Source: an uncultured Hormoscilla sp.
Lineage (GTDB): Bacteria > Cyanobacteriota > Cyanobacteriia > Cyanobacteriales > Desertifilaceae
Reading direction: 5' to 3'
DNA: 64,000 nucleotides
Assembly (NCBI GenBank): GCA_963921275.4
Contig: OZ001293.3
Span: 1,088,001-1,152,000 of the forward strand
Within the stretch, counting starts at the first letter, position 1. Each line of letters begins with the position of its first letter. The notes below the pieces were generated by a model. It was not told the origin of the DNA and did not search any database. It saw only the letters and a program-made list of their open reading frames with translations. Of this stretch, positions 22,396 to 64,000 are shown in pieces. The translations under genes and the position numbers were made by a program.

Positions 22396-24965
22396 CCCCT
22401 ATTATGCACTACAATTTGTAACATTTAAGTAATATGTAATGGTACGGCAAGATTGCAATTATCGTACATTTTGTAACATGCAATATATCTGGTGATTTGG
22501 CCAACTAAACGTATAATTTTTTATACGGATAAGAGTTTTTCGGTTCCCTTTCATCACCAAGCGCTTGTAATCATTGTGATTGAACTAAGCCAGGGAGTCA
22601 TCCCCCCGACTCGTCTTCAAAACCGGACGATCTGCTTTTCACCTCATCCGGCTCCTCAGTAATGCCACCCTTGTCATGGGTACGGCTACTACCATCACTG
22701 GCAGTTTTTTTATGTCGTGGCAGTGTTTGTGCAACAGTTGTAGGTTATCCCACCGGTCCTTACCACCTAATGAAAGCGGCTTAATGTGGTCTACTTCCCA
22801 ACTATCGCTATCCTTAAACGTTAATCCGCAATGTTGGCATTTCCCTTTTTGCATCCTGAGCAGCTTTGCTACTCTATTGCTCAATTCTGGGTTTCTGCCT
22901 AGTCTCGTGCTCCAATATGTGAGGTTCTCATCGTATGGGCTGGCTGTTCCTTTGACCTTTATATGTCTTACTATTTCTACACTTGCGTGTCGATATAGTT
23001 CCACATCCCCTTCTCGAAATCGCCATTGTCCATTTTGGCCTATTGACCAATAATTTCTGGCTATCCAACCTTTTGATTTATTAGGGTGCCTTCTTTTTGC
23101 CCATTTCCACAGGATTTCCCATAGGTAACTGTCCATATCCGAGTAAGTTTCTTTGCTTACTCCTGTCCTCAAGTAGTTGGCCCATCCTCGTATTATCGGA
23201 TTCAGTTTGCTTATCAGGGCAGCTTGTGGAGCTGCTTTATGTTTGTTTACTACTTCTGCCAGTCTTTCCTTGAGCTTACCTATGGATTTATTACTGGGTT
23301 TGATGAGGGTTTTGTAGCCTAGGGGTTTTCCATTTATACTCTTGCCGCTTCTGTACTTACTTACCTCATATTGCCTTATGTTGAATCCTAGGAAATCAAA
23401 TCCTGGTTCTTCTCCTTTTAGCATATGAGATATCTTTGTCTTTTCAGGCTTTAGTTCTAGTCCTATCCCTTTTAGCCACTCTGCTACGACCTTTTGCGCT
23501 TCTTCTATCTTTTCTTTGTCGTCGTGCATTACCACAAAGTCATCTGCATATCTAACTACTGTCAGTTTATGTTTTTCATTTTGTGTTTTTGCGAGTTCCA
23601 TTACAGCTTCTTCTAACCCGTGTAGGGCTATATTGGCTAGTAACGGTGATATGACTCCTCCCGTACCCTCTTTAGTTTCATACCATTCTTTCTTGTCTAT
23701 CACCCCGGCTTTTAACCATGCTCGTATCTGTTTACGAATTGGTGAAGTCGTATTTAGTTTTTCCATCAGCGCTTTATGGTCAATTTTATCGAAGCATTTG
23801 GCTATATCAGCATCTAAAACCCATTTGGATTTCTGTTTGATGCTATTAAATATTGCTCCGATTGCATCATGGCACCCTCTTCCCGGTCTGAATCCGTAGG
23901 AGTTACCTTCCATATACGCTTCCCATTCAGGATAACTGCGCAATTTTAAGTAACCCCTGTGTCGCACGGTCGTACATTGTCGGTATTCCTAATGGACGTT
24001 TTTCGTCCCTCTCTGGCTTTGGTATCCAGACCCGCCTTGCAGGTTTGGCCTTGTTTGAGATTTCTATTTGTCCTACCAGTTCCAGTCGTTGCTTTGGGGT
24101 CAGTGATTTTACACCATCCACACCTGCTGTCTTCTTTCCCTGGTTATCTTGTGTTACCTGTCGTACCGCTAGACTTTTGGCCGCCCGGGATTTTACCAGT
24201 AACCTCCTCTGCCTGCGAACTGTCCGCTTATCTCCACGTTGTGCCGCTCTGTAAATTCGCTTTTGCAACTTGAAGACTACCCTCTCTAGCTTCCGCCAGG
24301 GGGTATCCTTCCATTCATTCATCAATATATTTACCGTGCTCATGACATATACATTGCTACTTGCAACTCTACTTTTGACATTACCGTGAGGGCGTCAGCG
24401 TATCCTATCCATTACGGACAGGCGTTTGCTTCTCCACAGTATGACCTGCCTGATGGAAGCAGATGTTACGCCTTTGGTGGCTACTCTATCTATCGACCGG
24501 TGATAGAGAGTGCATACCTGGTTTACTTCGTTCCTATAGATGATTGTTCGTAGTTTTAGATGGATTCCCTACGCCGGGTTTGTTGTCAGTGCTTGCTGGT
24601 CGAATATTAAACCGCCAGCGACCTTTATCCTTTCCCTTTTGGGCCAGTGTGTCAGCCTTATTTCACTGGTTTTAAGTTACGACGCTGTAAATCTTCGCTT
24701 ACGCTCATCATGACTACTTGCTCGACGATAACCGGTGTGGGCTACCAGTTAGGGCGCCTTTTAACCCCGCTTTACGGATTGATGCCATCGCTACCGTAGG
24801 GGTTATGCTTTCAGTCCTGCACCTGGACGGGTGGGCTTTCACCACCATCATCTATAAGTTGTCTAGACTAATGAAATCTAGCTAGTGGTCCCCCAACTTG
24901 ACTTGTGTCAAGCATGTTTACACTAAACGAGTCGCACTAATACGTCTTGTAATGCAAAATGTAGG
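22396..24965. mobile_element. ~210-bp MITE, copy 2, interrupted by intron A
   Basis: 6-bp duplication TTATGG at 22390-22395 and 24966-24971; internal homology to the other two copies. Confidence 0.8.
22579..24937 (-). mobile_element. Group II intron A (IIB/chloroplast-like type) with a frameshifted RT-maturase-HNH ORF (~22585-24343)
   Basis: 5' GTGCGACTCGTTTAG; DV GAGCCGGATGAGGTGAAA; 3' GCTTAGTTCAAT; YADD. Frameshifts near 23935 and 22710, and PQ is missing from GTPQGG. Confidence 0.92.
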
Positions 24966-32000: not shown

Positions 32001-34420
32001 GTGCGATTCTTTTATGGTAAAATGACTTGACACGTGTCAAGAAAGGGGACCGCTAGCAGGGTTTCAATAGCCCTGACAACTTACAGATGATGGTGGTGAA
32101 AGCCCACCCCTCCAGGTGCTCTCGTGACAGCACCCTCCCGACGGTAGCGATGGCATCAATCCGTAAAGCGGGAAGGAAAGGCGCTCTAACTGGTAGCCTA
32201 AACCGGTCATCGTCGAGCAAGTAGTCATGATGAGCGCAAGCAAAGGTTCATAAGTGTCGTCAACATCAACCAGTGTAATAAGGCTGAGACACTGGCCCAA
32301 AAGGGAAAGGATAATGGTCATTAGCGGTTGTAATCCGACTAATAAGCACTGACAACAAACCCGGCATATAGAATCCATCTAAAACTACGATTAATCATCT
32401 GTAGGAACGAAGTAACCCAGCTAGGCACTCTCCATCACCGGTCGATAGATGGAGTAGTCACCAAAGACGCAACATCTGCTCTCATTTGGCAGGTCATAGC
32501 TGGGAAAGATTGAGTGGAGAAGCAAACGCCTATCTGTAATGGATGGGATAAGCTGACGCCCTCACGGTTTTGTCAATTGTGAAGTTGTGAGTAGTAGTTA
32601 ATATGTCACGGAACTTAGCCGAAAAGCAAGAGTATGAATGGAAGGAGGTGCCCTGGCAGGAGCTGGAGCGCCGATCGCGCTAGCGTGGCGCCAGCCATGT
32701 CTTCAAGCTACAAAAGCGAATTTACAGAGCGGCACAGGAAGGCAACAAGCGGAAAGTTCGCAAGCTCCAAGGGTTACTAAATAGGTCATGGTCCACGAAG
32801 ATGATAGCGGTGAGACAGGTAACACAACAAAACCAAGGAAAGAATGCGGCTGGTGTGGATGGTGTGAAAGCACTGACTATGGAGCAGCGACTGGAACTGG
32901 TAAGTCAGCTCAGAGTATCCAGGAAGGCAAAGGCGAAACCTACACTGCGTGTATGGATACCTAAGCCAGGAAGGGACGAAAAGCGGCCACTAGGAAGACC
33001 GACGATGCACGACCGCGCACTTCAGGGATTGGTCAAACAGTCGCTTGAGCCCGAATGGGAAGCGTACATGGAAGCCAATTCCTACGGATTCAGACCAGGA
33101 AGGGGATGCCACGATGCGATCGAAACGATATTCACCAGCACCAACAAGAAACCAAAATGGGTGTTAGATGCGGATATTGCGAAATGTTTCGACAAAATTG
33201 ACCACTCAGCGCTCCTAGAGAAATTGAATACAACATCACCAATCCGTAGACAGATACGGGCATGGCTAAAAGCCGGGGTGATGGACCAGGGAATATGGCA
33301 GGACACAGAAGCCGGAACTCCTCAAGGCGGAGTAATATCACCATTGCTAGCCAATATAGCCCTACATGGGTTGGAAAAGGTAGTGATGAGTCTTGCCCGC
33401 ACAAAGAGAGAGGAAAAGAAACTAACGATAGTCAGGTACGCCGATGATTTTGTGGTAATGCACGATGACCGGTCAATGATTGAGCGAGCACAAGGAGTGA
33501 TTGAGGAGTGGTTGAAGGGAATAGGACTAGAGCTAAAAGCCGAGAAAACCAGGATATCCCACACACTGGAAGGAGAAAACCCCGGATTTGACTTCCTAGG
33601 GTTCAATATCCGACAATACAAAGTAGGGAAACACAGAAGCGGCAAACTCAGCAACGGAACCCCCCTAGGATTCAAGACCCTAATCAAGCCTAGCGATAAA
33701 TCCATTAGGAATCATAAAGAGCAACTATCACAGATAGTTCGCCGCCATAAATCGGCACCACAGACAGCCTTGATAGTCAAACTAAACCCAATGATAAGGG
33801 GATGGAGCAACTACTTCAAGACGGTGGTAAGTAAGGAAACTTACAGCGACATGGATAGCTACCTATGGGAGCTGCTGTGGCAATGGGCAAAGAGAAGGCA
33901 TCCCAATAAATCGGGCGAATGGATTGCCAAAAATTATTGGGCCATGACCGGTAAGGACCGGTGGAGGTTCATCGGTAAATCCAAGAAAGGAGAAATAAAG
34001 CTAATCCGGCACTCTGAAACTGAAATAATCAGACACACAAAGGTAAAGGGGACAGCTAGCCCGCTTGACGGTAACCTAGTCTACTGGAGCCAGAGATTAC
34101 GAAAGAGCCCGGACGTAAGCATGAGAGTGATTAACCTGCTCAAGAGGCAGGATGGCAAGTGCCAGCATTGCGGACTAACGTTTAAGGACGGCGACAAATG
34201 GGAAGTGGACCACATCCTGCCAACCTCACTGGGAGGTAAGGACTGGTACTCCAACCTACAGTTGCTGCACGACTACTGCCATGATTATAAATCTGCCAGG
34301 GATGGCAGCAAAGGCCGTATCCATGACAAGGATGACGAAACTGAGGAGCCGGATGAGGTGAAAGTCTCACGTCCGGTTTTGAAGACGAGTCGGTACGGTG
34401 ACGTACTGGCTTAGTTTAAT
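32001..34420 (+). mobile_element. Group II intron B with an RT-maturase-HNH ORF (32602-34414) broken by a small repeat carrying TAG
   Basis: 5' GTGCGATTC; DV GAGCCGGATGAGGTGAAAGTCTCACGTCCGGTTT; 3' TTAGTTTAAT; YADD; CQHC...EVDH. Confidence 0.93.
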
Positions 34421-39583: not shown

Positions 39584-40017
39584 TTTTAATGGGCAAATAT
39601 GTCAACAAAAATATTTTAGCACGAGGTCTAACACCTATAATCTATCTGATCTCCTCTGGCCCCGGGATCATCCCAGAGAAGCTTCTGTATTATAATTAGA
39701 GCCAATGTAGTAATAGATGTGCATAAAAATAACTACGAACTACGAACTACGAACCCGAGAATTTGTGCTTTTATGCTTTAGTGAGATGCGCCCTCTGGCC
39801 TCTCTCTAGGCGCTGAGCGCCTGGGAAGCACGCTTCGTGCTTACTACGAACCTACTCTCTAGTCGCTGAGCGCCTGGGAAGCACGCTTCGTGCTTACTAC
39901 GAACCGCATAACCGGTACGAGCCAATAATAACACCGGTGTTAAGAGAGGGATTTTCGGTGTGAAATGGTTTGTCAATCCTATTGGCTATTCTCCTAATCT
40001 GTGTTAACCTAACTTAA

Positions 40018-40140
40018 TGTAGTCGGTTCTGATGGGGAACAGCCATCAGAGGTAACGGGGAAAGTTCGGTGCAAGTCCGACCCTGTCCCGCAGCTGTAAT
40101 CAGACAAGTTTGTCTGTAAGTCAGAAGGCCCGCCGATGAA
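40018..40140 (+). promoter_or_regulatory. Cobalamin riboswitch
   Basis: CGGTTCT...GGTAACGGGGAAAGTTCGGTGCAAGTCCG...CTGTCCCGCAGCTGTAA...AGTCAGAAGGCCCGCCG (B12-box) upstream of cobalt/cobalamin genes. Confidence 0.88.
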
Positions 40141-40337
40141 AAGCACAGTAAGTTAAGCATCTGCGAGGTACGGATGATGAGCATAAGTGAATTTCTATTG
40201 GTCCGACTCAGGCGTGAGCCTAGCATATTCCTCTGCAAGTACCGATGCTAGAGATGCCAGACCACTTTACCCAGACTGAATAGGGAGATTACGCCAGATG
40301 CGGGCGCTTTCTGGTTCCTTTGCGGCCTGGCATGCAG

Positions 40338-54894: not shown

Positions 54895-55121
54895 TACAAT
54901 AGTCCGGACCGTTTTGGCTGTACGTAGCTGCAAGCCTTGCGATGCACTCGGGGCGCGCTACTCGCACTACCCCTCGCGCATCGCAGCGTCAGCCTTTGCT
55001 CGATAGAGCAATTTTAGGCAAGTTAGCCCTGGGGCAGACATTGAAAAAAATAAGGCGCTTTTGGTTGCAACCCTTGTGTTGTGGTCGTTCTGAGGGTCTA
55101 AAAACTGTCCGGAGTATTGTA
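54895..55121. mobile_element. MITE with TA-bounded inverted ends (IS630-like)
   Basis: TACAATAGTCCGGAC / GTCCGGAGTATTGTA; contains a palindromic small repeat at ~54939-54984. Confidence 0.7.
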
Positions 55122-56147
55122 GAATGAAATAGCCCTGCCGATCTGTCCAGTTGATAAACCTCTAGCCATCCCCGATCGGGATCGAAGATAGCATAAGTAG
55201 GAAGAAGCAGGATCTGCTCGTAGTAGTACCATTTTCCTGGGGGATGTTTGGATTGTGCGATGAGTTCTAGCCTAACGTAGTCAAATACGGAACGCTAGCC
55301 TAGGAAACTAGGAACTCTGATATTCATGGGGGTTAAATTCCCTCTCCCCAGGCGCGGGGGTAACCGCGTGAGGTGCTGCGGAGTAACATCACCGTGGTGC
55401 CTCCCGAGGACTTAAATGTAGGATAGCTGACAGCCTAAGTCGGTGACGCCGCGCTTGTTAGATGTCCAAGGTCAGAACAAGCAAATTCATGTAAGCCTCG
55501 TCACATCCAACCAGCGAAATAAGGCTTTATGCGCTGGCCCAAAAGGGAAAGTAGTTAGTATTGGTTATTATCCATGACCAATATCGTGCTCGAAGAACTA
55601 CCGGGGTAAAGTGGAGACCTAAAGGCATCGCGCTTCGGATATCAGGGAACGAAGTAACTACTCGTGTACTGTCCGATCGGACCAGTCAGATGTGAAGCGC
55701 AAGTCACGGGTAGAGAGATGGCCCAAGAAGCAAATGCCTGGAGTAATGTCTAGGATAAGCAGACGTGCGGTGAGGGTGGGTGATAGTAGGAAGTCTCGGG
55801 TAAAAGTAGCTCTAAAACGTTATCAGCCCTTCACTGCGAAGTGATGAGGAATAAATTACTGGTAAAACGGACGTGAAAATGGTGATACTAAAGGTTATCC
55901 GGCAGCGCCACTCACCAACCAGTGAAGGAGCAAAATCGCATGAGACAAGGGACAATGAGAGTAATGTGCGATTCGTTTAGTGTAAACCACCGGCGATAAG
56001 TCGATGGGGGACCACTGGCAGGGTTCCATCAGCCCTGACAACTTCTAGATGATGGTGGTGAAAGTCCACCCCTCCAGGTGCAGGAGTGACAGCACTTACC
56101 CGACGGTAGCGATGGCATCAATCCGTAAAGCGGGTAAGAAAGGCGCA

Positions 56148-57089
56148 GTGCGAATCGTTTTGGCGTAAGTCTGAAATATGGCGATCGCCGGGCTGGTTAA
56201 TACCAGCAACTCTGGTCATCATGGGGTTCAATTCCCCTTCCCCCAGGTACGGGGGTGACCGCGTGAGGTGCTGCGGAGTAACATTACCGTGGTGCCTCCC
56301 GAGGACAAATGTAGGATAAGGTCTCAGCCCAGAGACCGACGCCGCATGGCTGCGCCACGCTGCGCGATCGGAAAGAGGCTCATGGTTAGAGCAAGCGAAT
56401 CCCTGTAAGCATCGTCATCTTAAACAAGCGAAAAGAGGCTGACACGCTTGGTGCAAAATGCGCACGCAGTCCGCGTATCAGTGGTTGCACGTCACTGATA
56501 TCGTACCCGAAATGACTGCCGGTGTATAGGGGAGACCTAAAAGCCTCGTGAAATGATACCAGGGAACGTTCCGGACAAGAGCGGTGCTGTCCAGATGGAC
56601 AAGTCAGATGTGCGTCCGCGTAGCGTGCGCGCAGCGCCTAGCGCATGCCCGCGTGGGGAGGGAGGTCCTAAGAAGCTAATGCCCGGGGTAATGCCTGTGG
56701 ATATGCAGACGTAGGACGGATATGGTAAAAAGCTCTAGGAGATAGTAGCCCTCTAAACGTGCTTAACCAGTGGCAACACTAGGTAGTAATGATGGACTGA
56801 AATCCTAACCGGGTAAAAAATTTAGAGGCCCCATACGGGCACCTGTTAGTAAAGAACGGTCATAGTGGTTTTCTAGTTCTCCCCCGTAAACCTTCCGGAG
56901 TTAGGTACTCAACTAGTTCATGACTGACCATAAAGGGGCTATATTTCATAGGGCAAGGGACAACGGGAGTAATCCCTAGTAATCCTACCCGTGACAAGGG
57001 TTTACCAACCAGTAGCCGTGTGCGGTGAAAGTCGCTCTTCAGGTTCCGAATGGGAGGATTGTCCCGCGAGGGACAGCTCGACCCCGACC
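56148..57089 (+). ncRNA. ORF-less group II intron H nested in domain I of G
   Basis: 5' GTGCGAATCGTT; DV TAGCCGTGTGCGGTGAAAGTCGC; 3' CTCGACCCCGACC. Removal restores AGGCGCA|ATAACTGG as in intron D. Confidence 0.9.
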
Positions 57090-57512
57090 ATAACTGGTAG
57101 CCTGAACCAGTTACCGCCAAGCAAGTAGTCATGGTGAGCGAAAGCAAAGACTCATATAAGTGTCGTTACATTGAACCAGCGAAAAGGCTGATGCGCTGGC
57201 CCAAAAGGGAAAGGATACAGGTCATTGGCGGTTGTTTTTCCGACCAATAAGCACTGACAATAAACCCGGCATAGAAAGTCCACCTAAAACTACGACCAAT
57301 CATCTAGAGGAACGAAGTAAACCAGGTACATACTCTCAACCACAGGTCGATAGGTTGAGTAGCCACCACAGGCGCAACATCTGCTTTTATTTGGCAGGTT
57401 GTATCTGGGAGAGATTTCGTGGAGAAGCTAACGCCCTTCTGTAATGGACGGGATATGCTGACGCCCTCACGGTAACGTCAATTGTGAAGTTGTAAGTAGC
57501 AATGCATACGTC

Positions 57513-59291
57513 ATGAGCACGATCTCCGAATCGATGAATGAATGGAAGGATACCCCCTGGCGAAAGTTGGATCGGGTAGTCTTTAAGTTGCAAAAACGAA
57601 TTTACAGAGCGGCAATGGAAGGCAATAAGCGAACGGTTCGCAGACTCCAAAGGTTACTGGTAAAATCCCGGGCTGCCAAAAGTCTAGCGGTACGACAGGT
57701 AACTCAAGACAACCAGGGAAAGAAGACAGCGGGAGTGGACGGTGTAAAAGCACTGACCCCAAAGCAACGCTTAGAACTGGTAGGACAAATTGAAATCTCA
57801 AACAAGGCCAAACCTACACGTCGTGTATGGATACCAAAACCAGGGAGAGACGAAAAGCGTCCACTAGGAATACCAACGATGTACGACCGGGCGACACAAG
57901 GACTCCTCAAAATTGCGCTTGAACCCGAATGGGAGGCGCATATGGAAGGAAACTCCTATGGTTTCAGACCGGGTAGGGGATGTCACGATGCAATACAGGC
58001 AATATTCGGAAGCATCAAACAAAAATCAAAGTGGGTATTGGATGCTGATATTGCAAAATGTTTTGACAAGATAGACCACAGGGCGCTACTGGAAAAACTG
58101 AATACAACATCACCCATTCCTAGACAAATACGGGCATGGTTAAAAGCCGGTGTGATGGACAAAGGGGAGTGGCACGCAACCGAGGCGGGAACGCCCCAAG
58201 GGGGTGTCATATCCCCACTGCTAGCCAACATAGCCCTCCACGGGTTAGAGGAGGCAGTAAAGAAACTCGCTATGACACAAAGGGAAAAGCAGAAGCTAAC
58301 AGTAGTTAGATATGCAGACGACTTTGTGATAATGCACGAGGATAGGGAGATGATAGACAGAGCGCAGACAGTGGTAGCAGAGTGGCTAAAAGGAATGGGG
58401 TTAGAGCTGAAAGCCGAAAAGACAAAGATAGCCCACACACTAATCGAAGAAAACCCGGGGTTTGATTTCCTAGGATTCAACGTAAGGCAACATCAGGTGG
58501 GAAAACACAGAACCGGCAAATCAACTCAGGGAACACCCCTAGGCTACAAAACCCTAATCAAACCCAGTAAAAAGTCCATAGGGAAACATAAAGAACGGTT
58601 ATCAGAAGTGGTAACTAGCCATAAAACAATACCGCAAGAGGCCTTGATAAGTAGGCTAAACCCAATAATACGGGGATGGTCAAACTATTACAGGACAGTG
58701 GTAAGTAAGGAAACTTACAACGATATGGATAAATACCTATGGAACATCCTATGGCAATGGGCCAAAAGGAGGCACCCTAATAAGTCAAGTCACTGGATAG
58801 CCCGTAAGTACTGGTCCGTAGACCAGGATGGTAAATGGCGATTCCGATGTAAGACAGGAGAGGGAGAGATAACGCTGCGCAAACACTCCGAAACTGAGAT
58901 AGTCAGACACGTAAAAGTGAAAGGAATAGCAAGCCCATATGACGGGAACCTTACATATTGGAGTACAAGGTTAGGCAAAAACCCCGAATTGAGTAAGAGG
59001 GTAGCAACGCTACTTAAGAAGCAAAAAGGAAAATGCCAACACTGCGGACTAACATTCAAGGACAGTGACAAATGGGAAGTTGACCAGATCAAGCCCCTTT
59101 CATTAGGAGGTAAGGACCGGTATGACAACCTACAATTACTGCACAAGCATTGCCACGACTCAAAGACTGTCAACGATGGCAGCAAAAACAGCCGTACCCA
59201 TGACAAGGGTGATGTTGCCGAGGAGCCGGATGAGGTGAAAGTCTCACGTCCGGTTCTGAAGACGAGTCGGTCCGGTGACGGACTGGCTTAG
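57513..59291 (+). CDS. Group II intron reverse transcriptase/maturase, uninterrupted 592 aa
   Basis: KRPLGIPT, SYGFRPGR, GTPQGGVISPLLANIALH, YADDF, LNPIIRGW, and CQHC; the HNH motif reads EVDQ. Confidence 0.95.
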   Translation: MSTISESMNEWKDTPWRKLDRVVFKLQKRIYRAAMEGNKRTVRRLQRLLVKSRAAKSLAVRQVTQDNQGKKTAGVDGVKALTPKQRLELVGQIEISNKAKPTRRVWIPKPGRDEKRPLGIPTMYDRATQGLLKIALEPEWEAHMEGNSYGFRPGRGCHDAIQAIFGSIKQKSKWVLDADIAKCFDKIDHRALLEKLNTTSPIPRQIRAWLKAGVMDKGEWHATEAGTPQGGVISPLLANIALHGLEEAVKKLAMTQREKQKLTVVRYADDFVIMHEDREMIDRAQTVVAEWLKGMGLELKAEKTKIAHTLIEENPGFDFLGFNVRQHQVGKHRTGKSTQGTPLGYKTLIKPSKKSIGKHKERLSEVVTSHKTIPQEALISRLNPIIRGWSNYYRTVVSKETYNDMDKYLWNILWQWAKRRHPNKSSHWIARKYWSVDQDGKWRFRCKTGEGEITLRKHSETEIVRHVKVKGIASPYDGNLTYWSTRLGKNPELSKRVATLLKKQKGKCQHCGLTFKDSDKWEVDQIKPLSLGGKDRYDNLQLLHKHCHDSKTVNDGSKNSRTHDKGDVAEEPDEVKVSRPVLKTSRSGDGLA

Positions 59292-59864
59292 TTTAATCTC
59301 TAGTAATCCTACCATTGACTTGGGCCTACTACCCAGTAGCCGTGTGCGGTGAAAGTCGCATGCACGGTTTCGAATGGGAGGGTTGGAAAGCGATTTCCAG
59401 CTCGACCCCTAATTAATCGAGTATTCGCCACCTTCGGTGTCCGACAAAAAACTCCATCGCGATTATTGGCACTTCTCCTTCCCTGTGGGGGGTGTAGCTT
59501 CTGTGTCCCTCGGGTAGTGCGAGTAGCGCTCCCGAGGGACACAGAAGACGAGTTTGGTTCGTCCGGTTGGGGGGGATGACCGATCGCACGTAAAACCAAT
59601 CCGGCGCTAAAGAAACTATTTTTCCATCTACAGTAGCGCAGATATCGCAGTTAGTACCGATTAATGCCTGGGGTAAAATGCGTCCAGCGATTCCCAAGCT
59701 TTCGGTTAACGCTGCTGCTAGCGGGGGTTGATTGAAGTTGTCAACGGGGTCGTCTGGTATAGGAAAATCAGGAGGTAATTTCTCCCAAATGATTATCGGT
59801 TTACTGATAGTTATGGCCATGATAATCTTTCCCCCGTGCTGTTATCATTATTATGAGGGAGGAG

Positions 59865-60035: not shown

Positions 60036-60425
60036 ATTAAACTAAGCCAACGGGTCACCCCGCCGACTCGTCTTCAGAACCGGACGTGAGACTTTCACCT
60101 CATCCGGCTCCTCAGTTTCGCCATCCTTGTCATGGATACGGCCTTTGTCACCATCTCTGGCAGACTTTACATCATGGCAATAATCATGCAGCAACTGTAG
60201 GTTGGTATACCAGTCTTTACCTCCTTTAGAAACTGGTAGAATATGGTCAACCTCCCATTTGTCGCCATCTTTGAATTTCAGTCCGCAGTGCACACACTTA
60301 CCATCCTGCTCTTTTAGCAGTCTGATAACTCTAGCGCTCACATCCGGGCTTTTTCTCAGTCTTTTGCTCCAATAAACCAGATTACCGTCAAACGGGCTAG
60401 CTGTCCCCTTAACCTTTACGTGTCT

Positions 60426-61296
60426 GTGCGATTCGTTCTAGCCTAACGTGGTCAAACACGGAACGCTAGCCCGGTTTCATTAGCCGGGAACTCTGACCGC
60501 ATGGGGGTTAAATTCCCCTCCCCCCAGGTACGGGGGTGACACCGGTCCTCGGTGCTACGAAGCGACATCATCGTGGTGCTAAGCGAGGACTCAAATGTAG
60601 GATAACTGGCAGCCTAAGCCGGTGACGCCGCTAGGAAAGATATCCAAGGTTAGAGCAGGCAAACATGTGCAAGCCTCGTTATAAGGAACCAGCGAAATAA
60701 GGCTATATGCGCTGGCCTAAAAAGGAAATGGTAGCTAGTATTAGTTTTAGACTCTGGCTAATATAGTACTCAAATAGCTCCCGGGGTATAGTGTGGACCT
60801 AAAGGTATCGCGAAATGTTGTTAGGGAACGAAGTAACCTCTCGTGTGCTGTCCATCAGGACAAGTTAGATGTTAAGCGCAAGCCACGGGGGGAGGGATGG
60901 CCCAAGAAGCGAATGCCCGGGGTAATTCCTGGGATAACATCTACAGTAATGTAGATGATGCTGGGTAGCCAGCGCTGACGTGGGTCGGTGATACTAGGAA
61001 GCTGCTGGAATGAGTAATCCTAAAAAGCCACGGAACTAATCCGAAACGCAAGTGGAGGATAAGGTATGGATAACTGGTAAAACTGACTTGAAAATGGTGA
61101 TACTAACGGTTATCAGAACAACCACTCGCTAAACCAGGAAAGGGAAGAAAAGACAGGCGGCAAGGGCTAACGGAAGTAATTCCTATTAAGTCTACCTATG
61201 AAAAGGGCCTAGTACCCAGTAGCCGGATGCGGTGAAAATCGCAAGTCCGGTTCCTCAAGGGAGGGTCGGGAAGCGATTCCCGGCTCGACCCCATCC
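60426..61296 (+). ncRNA. ORF-less group II intron K inserted antisense in the ORF of J
   Basis: 5' GTGCGATTCGTTCTAG; DV TAGCCGGATGCGGTGAAAATCGCAAGTCCGGTTC; 3' CTCGACCCCATCC; host frame is restored on removal. Confidence 0.92.
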
Positions 61297-63071
61297 GATT
61301 ATTTCAGTTTCAGAGTATCGGTTTAGCTTCATTCCTCCATCTTCTTTAGACTTGCCAGCGAACCTCCACCGGTCTTTCCCGGTCATACCCCAGTACTTAC
61401 TAGCAATCCATTTGCCCGTTTTGTTAGGATGTCTTCTCTTTGCCCATCGCCATAACAACTTCCATAAGTAGTTATCCATAGAGCTGTAAGTTTCTTTACT
61501 TACCACCGTCCTATAATAGTTGCTCCATCCCCTTATCATCGGGTTTAGTCTTGCTATTAAGGCCGTTTGCGGTGCCCCTTTATGGCGGCGAACTATCTCT
61601 GATAGCTGCTCTTTATGATTCCTTATGGATTTATCGCTAGGCTTGATTAGGGTCTTGAATCCTAGGGGGGTTCCGTTACAGAGTTTGCCGCTTCTGTGTT
61701 TCCCTACTTTATATTGTCGGATATTGAACCCTAAGAAGTCAAATCCAGGGCTCTCTCCTTCCAATGTGTGGGATATCTTCGTTTTCTCGGCTTTTTGCTC
61801 CAGCCCTATTCCCTTCAACCACTCCTCAATCACTCCTTGAGCTTCCTCAATCATCGACCGGTCATTATGTATTACCACAAAGTCATCCGCATATCTTACT
61901 ACGGTTAACTTCTCCTTCTCTCTTTTTGTGTGAGCGAGACCCATTACTACCCCTTCCAGCCCATGTAAAGCTATATTGGCTAGTAATGGAGATATAACCC
62001 CACCTTGGGGAGTTCCGGCTTCTGTGGATTCCATCCTTCCCCGGTCCATCACCCCAGCTTTTAGCCATGCCCGTATTTGTTTACGGATTGGTGACGTAGT
62101 ATTCAATTTCTTTAGGAGCGCGGAATGGTCAATTTCGTCGAAACACTTCGCAATATCCGCATCTAACACCCATTTCGATTTTTGACTGATGCTAGCGAAT
62201 ATCGCTGCAACTGCATCATGACATCCCCTACCTGGTCTAAACCCGTAGGAATTGGCTTCCATATACGCTTCCCATTCAGGCTCTAGCGCTTCTTTAACCA
62301 ATCCCTGAAGTGCGCGGTCGTGCATCGTTGGTATTCCTAATGGCCGCTTCTCCTCCCTTCGTGGCTTCGGTATCCACACTCTTCGTGTGGCTTTTGCCTT
62401 CGCCTTTCGAGTAACTTTGATTTGACCTACCAGTTCGATACGTTCTTTTGGGGTCAGTGCTTTCACACCATCCACACCAGCCGTCTTCTTTCCCTGGTTT
62501 TGTTGTGTTACCTGCCGTACCGCTATCATCTTCGCGGACCATGACCTATTTAGTAATCCTTGGAGCTTACGAACCTTCTGCTTATTACCTTCCAGTGCCG
62601 CTCTGTAAATTCGCTTTTGCAGCTTAAAAACTATCCTTTCCAGCTTTCGCCAGGCGACAGTCTTCCATTCATACTCTTGTCTTTCGACTAAGTTCCGTGA
62701 CATATTCACTACTACTTACAACTTCACAATTGACGAGACCGTGAGGGCGTCAGCTTATCCTATCCATTACAGACAGGCATTTGCTTCTCCACTCAATCTC
62801 CCCCAGTTGCGTCCTGCCTTCCGGAGAGCAGATGTTACGCCTGTGGTGGCTACTCCATCTATCGACCGGTGATGGAGAGTGCTACAACCGGGTTACTTCG
62901 TTCCTACAGATGATTGGTCGTAACCTTAGACGGGTTCTCTACGCCGGGTTTATTGTCAGTGCTTATTGGTCGGGTATACATCCGCCAATGACCAGTATCC
63001 TTTCCCTTTTTGGGCCAGTGTATCAGCCTTATTACACTGGATAGGCTTTACGACGTTGCAAACCTTCGCTT

Positions 63072-63906
<835 letters not shown>

Positions 63907-64000
63907 TACGCTCATCATAGTTACTTGCTCGACGATGACCGGTCTAGGCTCCCAGCCATAGCGCCTTTCCTTCCCGCTTCACGGATTGATGCCATCGCTA

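Follow-up and report, generated by a model that had tools for sequence, protein, structure and literature searches.

Three same-strand group II introns nested one inside another in an intron-crowded Hormoscilla chromosome

The 64,000-nt window analyzed here (C1:1088001-1152000, C1 being contig OZ001293.3 of an uncultured Hormoscilla sp.) comes from a 7.03-Mb assembly of 7 contigs, one of 6.88 Mb and six small ones. At 55255-59413 it holds three group II introns, all on the plus strand and each inside the next: an intron without an open reading frame (ORF), F, contains a reverse transcriptase (RT)-encoding intron, G, which in turn contains a second ORF-less intron, H. A first-pass annotation of this DNA had placed a three-level same-strand nest at these positions, and collinear uninterrupted copies with matching ends bear out its coordinates exactly; the nest is real and all three of its boundaries are exact. 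We consider it likely that the nest is a pile-up of three separate retro-insertions in an intron-saturated chromosome, and it is an ordinary outcome of intron crowding rather than a new kind of element. Its parts are as follows.

55255-55965 and 59298-59413, plus strand: F, the outer intron, ORF-less, 827 nt after removal of G
55966-56147 and 57090-59297, plus strand: G, the middle intron, RT-encoding, 2,390 nt after removal of H
56148-57089, plus strand: H, the inner intron, ORF-less, 942 nt
55255-55965, plus strand: 5′ segment of F, with domains I-III and the 5′ half of the domain IV hairpin; starts GTGCGATGAG
55966-56147, plus strand: 5′ segment of G, the first 182 nt of domain I, ending in the internal loop of a conserved domain I hairpin
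57090-59297, plus strand: 3′ segment of G, with the rest of domain I, domains II-IV, and domains V/VI at 59221-59297
59298-59413, plus strand: 3′ segment of F, with the 3′ half of the domain IV hairpin, domain V at 59338-59369, and domain VI; ends CCCCTAAT

The boundaries follow from the ends of the introns and from copies in which one or another of them is missing. GTGCGA opens F, G, and H alike, in agreement with the canonical GUGYG start, and the Rfam domain V/VI model RF00029 (gathering score 40) matches the 3′ end of G at 59221-59297 with 58.8 bits and that of F at 59335-59413 with 47.4 bits. Once H is removed, G aligns without gaps over positions 1-2390 to copies at C1:5054161-5051772 and C1:6623488-6625877, each identical to it at 2388 of 2390 positions (99.9%), and the junction at which G is rejoined over H is read directly. 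H itself has seven other full-length copies at unrelated sites, with identical ends (GTGCGAA at the start, CCCCGACC at the end) and a shared target motif, TAAGA...GCA|; six of these copies are 99.5-99.9% identical to the one in the window and the seventh 96.3%. F without G aligns over its full 827 nt (1-827) with G-less, ORF-less relatives at 76-82% identity. The exact target of G, CAATGAGAGTAAT|CTCTAG, is found empty near C1:2036040 in a 5′-truncated F-like fragment, and in a contig from a run of another organism (X5) position 55961 is followed directly by 59294, so that 3,332 nt, the length of G, are absent. The boundary of G could be slid by 4 nt, as TAAT stands both before G and at its end; the GTGCG start fixes its position. 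All three predicted junctions, AGGCGCA|ATAACTG for H, GAGTAAT|CTCTAGT for G, and TTGGATT|TAATCG for F, were correct, and at both levels the outer intron fully encloses the inner one and becomes whole again when the latter is taken out, as defines a twintron.

The two inner insertion sites were placed in the folded introns by RNAalifold consensus structures, built from 11 ORF-less representatives for the site of G in F and from 18 copies of the G family for that of H in G; the latter was used after the Rfam D1-D4 models, run on uninterrupted G copies, gave no match at E ≤ 1. In F's domain IV hairpin, G follows the first base of the 3′ strand, 41 nt before the AGC of domain V, close to the roughly 40 nt anticipated. 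The hairpin is small and covaries, reading GAGA-GUAA-UCUC in F, GGGA/UCCC in H, and GGAA/UUCC in another family. H occupies an internal loop of 3 nt that separates two helices, of 4 and 7 bp, in a domain I hairpin of G, about 90 nt upstream of G's exon-binding site 2 (EBS2) loop and 424 nt upstream of the start codon. As had been proposed, it lies in domain I with the ORF downstream: it is inserted after position 182 of G, and the ORF starts at position 606.

The sequence of each target points to the way in which these introns arrived. Two domain I hairpin loops are complementary to the 5′ flank of each insertion, and their positions in the three introns are as follows.

55503-55510, plus strand: EBS2 loop of F, ACATCCAA
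55566-55576, plus strand: EBS1 loop of F, TATTATCCATG
57168-57175, plus strand: EBS2 loop of G
57232-57239, plus strand: putative EBS1 loop of G
56148-57089, plus strand: H, with its EBS2 loop at 56417-56424, its EBS1 loop at 56484-56492, and a non-canonical domain V at 57014-57045

Where F meets its host (target GGATGT..TGGATT|, 55242-55254, plus strand), the loop and flank pair as ACAUCC/GGAUGU at -13 to -8 (6 of 6 positions) and as UAUCCA/UGGAUU at -6 to -1 (5 of 6). The corresponding intron-binding sites (IBS) pair at 5 of 5 (IBS2) and 5 of 6 (IBS1) positions for G in F, at 5 of 5 and 4 of 6 for H in G, and at 4 of 6 and 6 of 6 for F at a second locus described below. Total pairing amounts to 9-11 of 11 or 12 positions, a level equalled or bettered at 2-581 of 200,000 random genome positions, with pairing registers that were picked with the flanks in view and with an EBS1 of G (GUUUUU) that is a post hoc assignment. 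We also grouped intron copies by loop sequence and compared loop and flank by eye in five groups. Complementary changes were seen for UAAGG/CCUUA (n = 140), ACCC/GGGUU (n = 10), UCUUA/UAAGA (n = 7), and the single F copy, and in the two-copy G group the flank was only partly complementary to the loop. For the second-largest loop group (n = 70, loop ATCTAGAA) there was no clear complement at -13 to -9 of the flank consensus. Precise, EBS-paired targets of this kind argue for reverse splicing into DNA rather than for recombination or misassembly.

We therefore propose, for these precise targets, that the nest was built from the outside in. ORF-less F would first have reverse-spliced in the antisense orientation into a Uma2-family gene or pseudogene, with protein supplied in trans; RT-encoding G would then have entered F at its small hairpin in domain IV, 41 nt ahead of domain V; and ORF-less H would have entered the internal loop of G's domain I hairpin. 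At each step the EBS2 and EBS1 loops of the incoming intron would have paired with the target at -13 to -8 and -6 to -1. H was the last to arrive: it is absent from a second F(G), its exact target is occupied in only one of the three G copies, that of the window, and six of its seven other full copies are nearly identical to it. This second F(G) lies at C1:6622023-6625993 and answers a search for F(G) at another site that had been named beforehand as a check. It carries a different, 754-nt ORF-less intron, X, after position 88 of F, and its surroundings are unrelated, with an MFS-like frame upstream, no similarity to Uma2, and a likeness to the window that ends 5 nt past F. Among 31 genomes (best 25 matches per genome), the F|G junction, searched as a full 240-nt span, was found at these two loci only, both in this genome, and the G|H junction in the window only.

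By itself the second F(G) is compatible with composite movement and with repeated homing of G alike. Between the two loci, F shows 5 differences in 827 positions and the G inside it 2 in 2390 (Fisher p = 0.014), and since the F parts are more diverged than the G parts, a later and separate arrival of G fits better. The G of the window differs at 2 positions from each of the other copies, which are 4 apart and one of which lies outside any F. G thus appears to have entered F separately from the spread of F, a comparison of composite and separate movement that rests on seven substitutions. X belongs to a family of its own habit: 10 of its 10 census copies stand after position 88 of other ORF-less introns, producing tandem 88-nt 5′ ends.

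The setting is a chromosome saturated with such introns, and the nest has to be read in that light. We took a census with four 5′-end and four 3′-end BLAST probes and same-strand bracket matching, a procedure that misses opposite-strand insertions and diverged 5′ ends, so that its counts are lower bounds. It gave 375 5′ ends (364 starting GTGCG), 490 3′ ends, and at least 320 paired introns, the 320 forming 298 top-level elements: 281 single introns, 14 two-level nests, and 3 three-level nests, that of the window included. Intron-like DNA makes up 519,577 of 7,034,909 bases (7.39%); it is confined to the chromosome, the six small contigs having none, and accounts for 26.8% of the window. RF00029 has at least 151 matches in this genome, with the best 150 of 867 first-look candidates scored. 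Of the four other species of the genus, three gave at least 122, 85, and 119 matches among 136 scored candidates, and the fourth gave 2, and the count in 16 genomes from other genera was 0-16. The genome of Thermosynechococcus elongatus reportedly has 28 introns, as against the at least 320 paired copies here. The highest published count that we found is 101, for Arthrospira platensis (PMC8919778), and a literature search gave no report of a group II intron load above it. At 320 copies or more, no bacterial group II intron population in the literature searched would be denser than this one.

Several observations weigh against a pile-up of separate insertions. No contig of the public runs, all of them short, spans the nest. 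The EBS1 of G is our own, putative assignment, fitted on only two sites. The domain V of H is deviant, so H may not splice and may leave the ribozyme of G broken. All five differences between the F copies fall within positions 1-381, away from G, and recombination or co-conversion could have shaped that pattern. Moreover, the genome holds no G-less member of the F subfamily at ≥95% identity, both members carrying G, and one exact G target remains empty; movement of F(G) as a unit would account for these facts equally well or better.

The first of these points raises the question of whether the nest is an assembly artefact, made of repeats that were collapsed or chimerically joined. The region does consist of multi-copy repeats, and the pieces of public-run contigs at the outer junctions extend into the intron by only 28-30 nt, short of the 31-nt requirement. 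However, every junction is a precise intron end abutting an EBS-paired target, where mis-joined repeats would meet at homologous positions, and the same F|G junction is present a second time in a different context. The chromosome was also assembled as one 6.88-Mb contig plus six small ones despite some 400 repeat copies, a contiguity that suggests the use of long reads, and contigs of three runs from the same organism cover 30 of 30 depth bins. An artefact is therefore, on the strength of these junctions, very improbable, and we rejected misassembly in view of the unrelated flanks of the second F(G) and the EBS-matched junctions. The same unrelated flanks led us to reject tandem or segmental duplication of the nest.

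A second alternative is that F(G) is a composite retroelement, in which F took a whole RT intron into its domain IV and moved as a 3.2-kb unit, using its own ribozyme ends and the protein of G; the second F(G) would have arisen by that movement, and H and X would each have entered one of the two copies afterwards, independently. The junctions are indeed the same in two F(G) copies that stand at unrelated sites, whose differing flanks both fit the EBS loops of F; both members of the F subfamily carry G, the next relatives of F being 82% identical; and the empty exact G target indicates that homing by G is not saturating. Other composites recur whole in this genome, one of 4.1 kb at 5 sites, one of 1,742 nt at 4 sites, and two three-level nests that are 99.3% alike, and composite retromobility is named as one possible route by Mohr et al. 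(2010, PMC2882425). However, the F parts are about 7 times more diverged than the G parts, where a single recent composite jump predicts equal divergence, and the equidistance of the window's G (2 and 2) from two copies, one of them not in F, describes a star-like recent spread of G alone. Nor were private variants common to the inner and outer parts found in the other composites, although these cases are undecisive: the five copies of the 4.1-kb composite have singletons only (13, 7, and 6 variable sites in the outer intron and in the parts f1 and f2), the 7 composite-borne copies of f1 have no variant separating them from 65 free copies, and the four twintrons of 1,742 nt agree with the family consensus and vary at 4 sites, all singletons.

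Movement of F(G) as a composite is thus not favored, and we regard it as rather unlikely for this nest. The broader proposal, that intron-in-intron composites of this genome (F(G), the 4.1-kb and 1,742-nt elements, and those of about 5.9-6.5 kb) are themselves mobile units, is one that we can offer only tentatively and think doubtful. If it were true, composite mobility would be a natural way to gain or regain a protein module by nesting, with an ORF-less ribozyme re-armed in the process.

The deviant domain V of H bears on a third alternative, that the nest is an inert fossil in which H cannot splice, domain I of G stays split, and G and F stay in place, leaving the RT protein as the only possible product. 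Even at E ≤ 1, RF00029 does not match the 3′ end of H, and the domain V there, AGCCGUGUGCGGUGAAAGUCGCUCUUCAGGUU, has tandem G.A and U.C mismatches in its lower helix. Compared with shuffled sequences, the 3′ end of H folds with z = +0.30, versus -2.86 for F and -4.76 for G. The IBS1 pairing of H in G covers only 4 of 6 positions, and the nest lies antisense in a pseudogene with 6 promoter-like sites against a shuffle mean of 5.6 and 6 terminator-like sites, the same number as in shuffles.

The distribution of the variant speaks on the other side. The H subfamily has eight full copies, including the six near-identical ones, at target-matched sites, and such a recent, target-matched spread requires a recently active ribozyme or help in trans. 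The 32-nt domain V variant, with three single-base alternatives allowed, stands at 22 places in C1, among them ORF-less introns elsewhere that are only 69-78% identical to H. Because it is kept letter for letter across these diverged subfamilies, it looks like a maintained variant, and judging from this conservation and from the spread of H it is probably functional or helped in trans. H remains classed as a group II intron because of its 5′ end, its full-length similarity to F-type introns (68-80%), its EBS/IBS-matched copies, and its conserved parts, namely the AGC, the GAAA loop, and domain VI. One H copy, at C1:1555490-1556432, interrupts a long frame in the sense orientation with the frame kept, the upstream part of 373 aa containing a TPS secretion domain. 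This copy could mean that H-type introns splice in vivo; as one copy in eight, it is too weak to use. Overall, we think it improbable, though by no means negligibly so, that the nest is a fossil, and we retain the reading of successive insertions.

If the nest is spliced, RNA-folding logic and analogy suggest that the order would have to be H, then G, then F. H would have to leave before domain I of G could form, an inner-first order expected by analogy with Trichodesmium. G would have to leave in turn, or at least not disturb F, as domain IV tolerates large inserts. The G protein could still be translated from unspliced RNA, and the many other copies in the genome could supply maturase in trans.

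57513-59291, plus strand: intron-encoded protein of G, 592 aa, with the Pfam domains RVT_N, RVT_1, GIIM (maturase), and HNH

The claim that this ORF is intact holds, all four domains being present (E-values of 2.5e-45, 1.6e-32, 3.2e-25, and 3.1e-13, in the order RVT_N, RVT_1, GIIM, HNH). G is thus a retroelement by its RT, maturase (X), and endonuclease (En) domains, encoded in domain IV, and F and H have no ORF. Among solved chains, 6ME0_C ('Maturase reverse transcriptase', E 1.4e-113) is the closest, and we take it to be the TeI4h protein of Thermosynechococcus, of the chloroplast-like IIB type. An EBS2 loop is present, which argues against class IIC. F, G, and H may tentatively be described as related chloroplast-like (IIB-type) introns, a class assignment that rests on one protein match. 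The protein of G had also been called the only intact RT, which is true of the window, where four other RT frames are incomplete, and does not extend to the genome.

22639-23967: RT frame without RVT_N
32801-34414: RT frame in which only 37 of 83 RVT_N positions, the last ones, follow the first start codon
52889-54442: RT frame without RVT_N
61255-62709: RT frame without HNH, the HNH part standing at 60042-60341, beyond an opposite-strand intron

Across the genome, 140 open-frame segments are similar to the G protein, and 17 of them span residues ≤25 to ≥555 in one frame; 14 of these 17, G's own included, begin at residue ≤5 (start codons unverified). Given 17 near-full-length RT frames, a single maturase for the whole nest is not required.

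The host of the nest is a pseudogene, probably of the Uma2 family, on the minus strand, in two parts.

59414-59820, minus strand: N-terminal part of the host, with a frameshift and an insertion
54989-55254, minus strand: C-terminal part of the host (SKHPPGKWYYYEQ...), continuous across the excision point of F

A paralogue at C1:6255391, which matches Pfam Uma2 (PF05685) at 29.2 bits against a cut-off of 27, is 47% identical to the N-terminal part and 63% identical over 48 residues after the junction; the two host fragments themselves gave no Pfam match at E ≤ 0.1. Removal of F had been said to restore the Uma2 frame, and locally it does: the alignment is gap-free across the excision point, EYS|IKSKHPPGKW against EYSSKESDPPGKW. 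The claim does not carry over to the gene as a whole, in which the reading frame shifts about 25 nt upstream of the junction and a 17-residue insertion is present, and which diverges from the paralogue soon after the junction. The insertion holds a perfect palindrome at 59498-59547, with 17-nt arms and a 16-nt spacer, which may be a small palindromic mobile element. As F is antisense to the host gene, its splicing could never restore the host mRNA, and the Uma2 host is a pseudogene regardless of splicing. The nest would seem to serve no host function.

The mechanism is the same as that of known nested introns. That two-level twintrons occur in cyanobacteria had been stated at the outset and is documented for both T. 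elongatus (PMC2882425) and Trichodesmium (PMC4649490). In T. elongatus, TeI4 carries TeI3, one protein splices and mobilizes both the outer and the inner intron, and the pattern of inner copies alike and outer copies diverged was read as independent insertion (Mohr, Ghanem and Lambowitz 2010, PMC2882425). The present nest resembles that system in its cyanobacterial host, its RT/maturase/HNH protein, its ORF-less relatives mobilized in trans, the homing of one intron into a conserved site of another, and inner copies more alike than outer ones. Unlike the two levels described there, it has three, and the arrangement differs as well: in T. elongatus an ORF-less intron lies between the first two ATGs of the RT ORF, whereas here an RT intron lies in domain IV of an ORF-less intron and an ORF-less intron in domain I of the RT intron. 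The Tery_4732 twintron of Trichodesmium erythraeum, for which the inner intron was shown to splice first and splicing in vivo gives a functional mRNA (Pfreundt and Hess 2015, PMC4649490), likewise consists of one cyanobacterial group II intron inside another, and an inner-first order would be expected here too. However, that twintron has two levels and lies in the sense orientation in a conserved protein gene, whereas the nest of the window lies antisense in a pseudogene and is known from its sequence.

Nested arrays with homing into related intron ORFs were reportedly described in Methanosarcina acetivorans by Dai and Zimmerly in 2003. The nests of that species hold up to five introns and are attributed to repeated homing (Zimmerly and Semper 2015, PMC4424553; PMC2882425). 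They share with the present nest several levels, site-specific homing, and the serving of no coding exons, an intron being a perpetual homing site; unlike the archaeal arrays, the present nest is bacterial, stands in a several-hundred-copy expansion, and uses a domain IV hairpin and a domain I loop as its sites. In plant mitochondria, self-invading and 'zombie' twintrons arise when an intron invades its own copy or a relative (PMC7049729). The 1,742-nt self-twintron of this genome is like these, which are organellar and without contemporary RT-driven mobility. New features here are the depth of three levels for a bacterium, the position of an RT intron within the domain IV hairpin of one that is ORF-less, the insertion sites, and the several-hundred-copy background.

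Nested group II introns illustrate how introns provide mutual safe landing sites and how ORF-less ribozymes live off shared maturases, and both are relevant to models of how spliceosomal introns and trans-acting splicing factors arose. The order seen here, ORF-less outside, RT intron in the middle, and ORF-less inside, is unusual. The larger value lies in the setting, a cyanobacterial chromosome of cultivable size that is 7.4% intron, with recurring composites and a proliferating lineage with a non-canonical domain V, which makes composite mobility, trans-maturase networks, and the tolerance of domain V to change testable in one organism.

Other intron-in-intron elements of the genome deserve description. 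The two further three-level nests, at C1:6636006-6630135 and C1:4762604-4756093, each have one RT intron inside another, with an ORF-less intron in domain I; over 5,144 nt the two nests are 99.3% alike, and they lie between different outer flanks. The 4.1-kb composite is an RT intron that holds two ORF-less introns, one in domain I and one on the opposite strand, the latter splitting the RT ORF; it recurs at five sites in total with 99.7-99.9% identity, and one copy begins in the window.

60036-64000 and on to about C1:1152150, minus strand: 4.1-kb composite
63906-63072, minus strand: its 837-nt ORF-less intron, in domain I
60426-61296, plus strand: its 871-nt ORF-less intron, splitting the RT ORF into 61255-62709 and 60042-60341

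The 1,742-nt self-twintron consists of an 871-nt ORF-less intron within domain IV of its own copy, from a family with 139 full-length copies at ≥97% identity, and it stands at four sites.

C1:1325884-1327625: 1,742-nt self-twintron
C1:5180205-5181946: 1,742-nt self-twintron
C1:6031315-6029574: 1,742-nt self-twintron
C1:4743593-4741852: 1,742-nt self-twintron

Elsewhere in the window, RF01999 has a weak match at 60503-60622 (E 0.5), and a cobalamin riboswitch aptamer (RF00174) lies at 40007-40151 on the plus strand, with 59.9 bits against a gathering score of 31.5.

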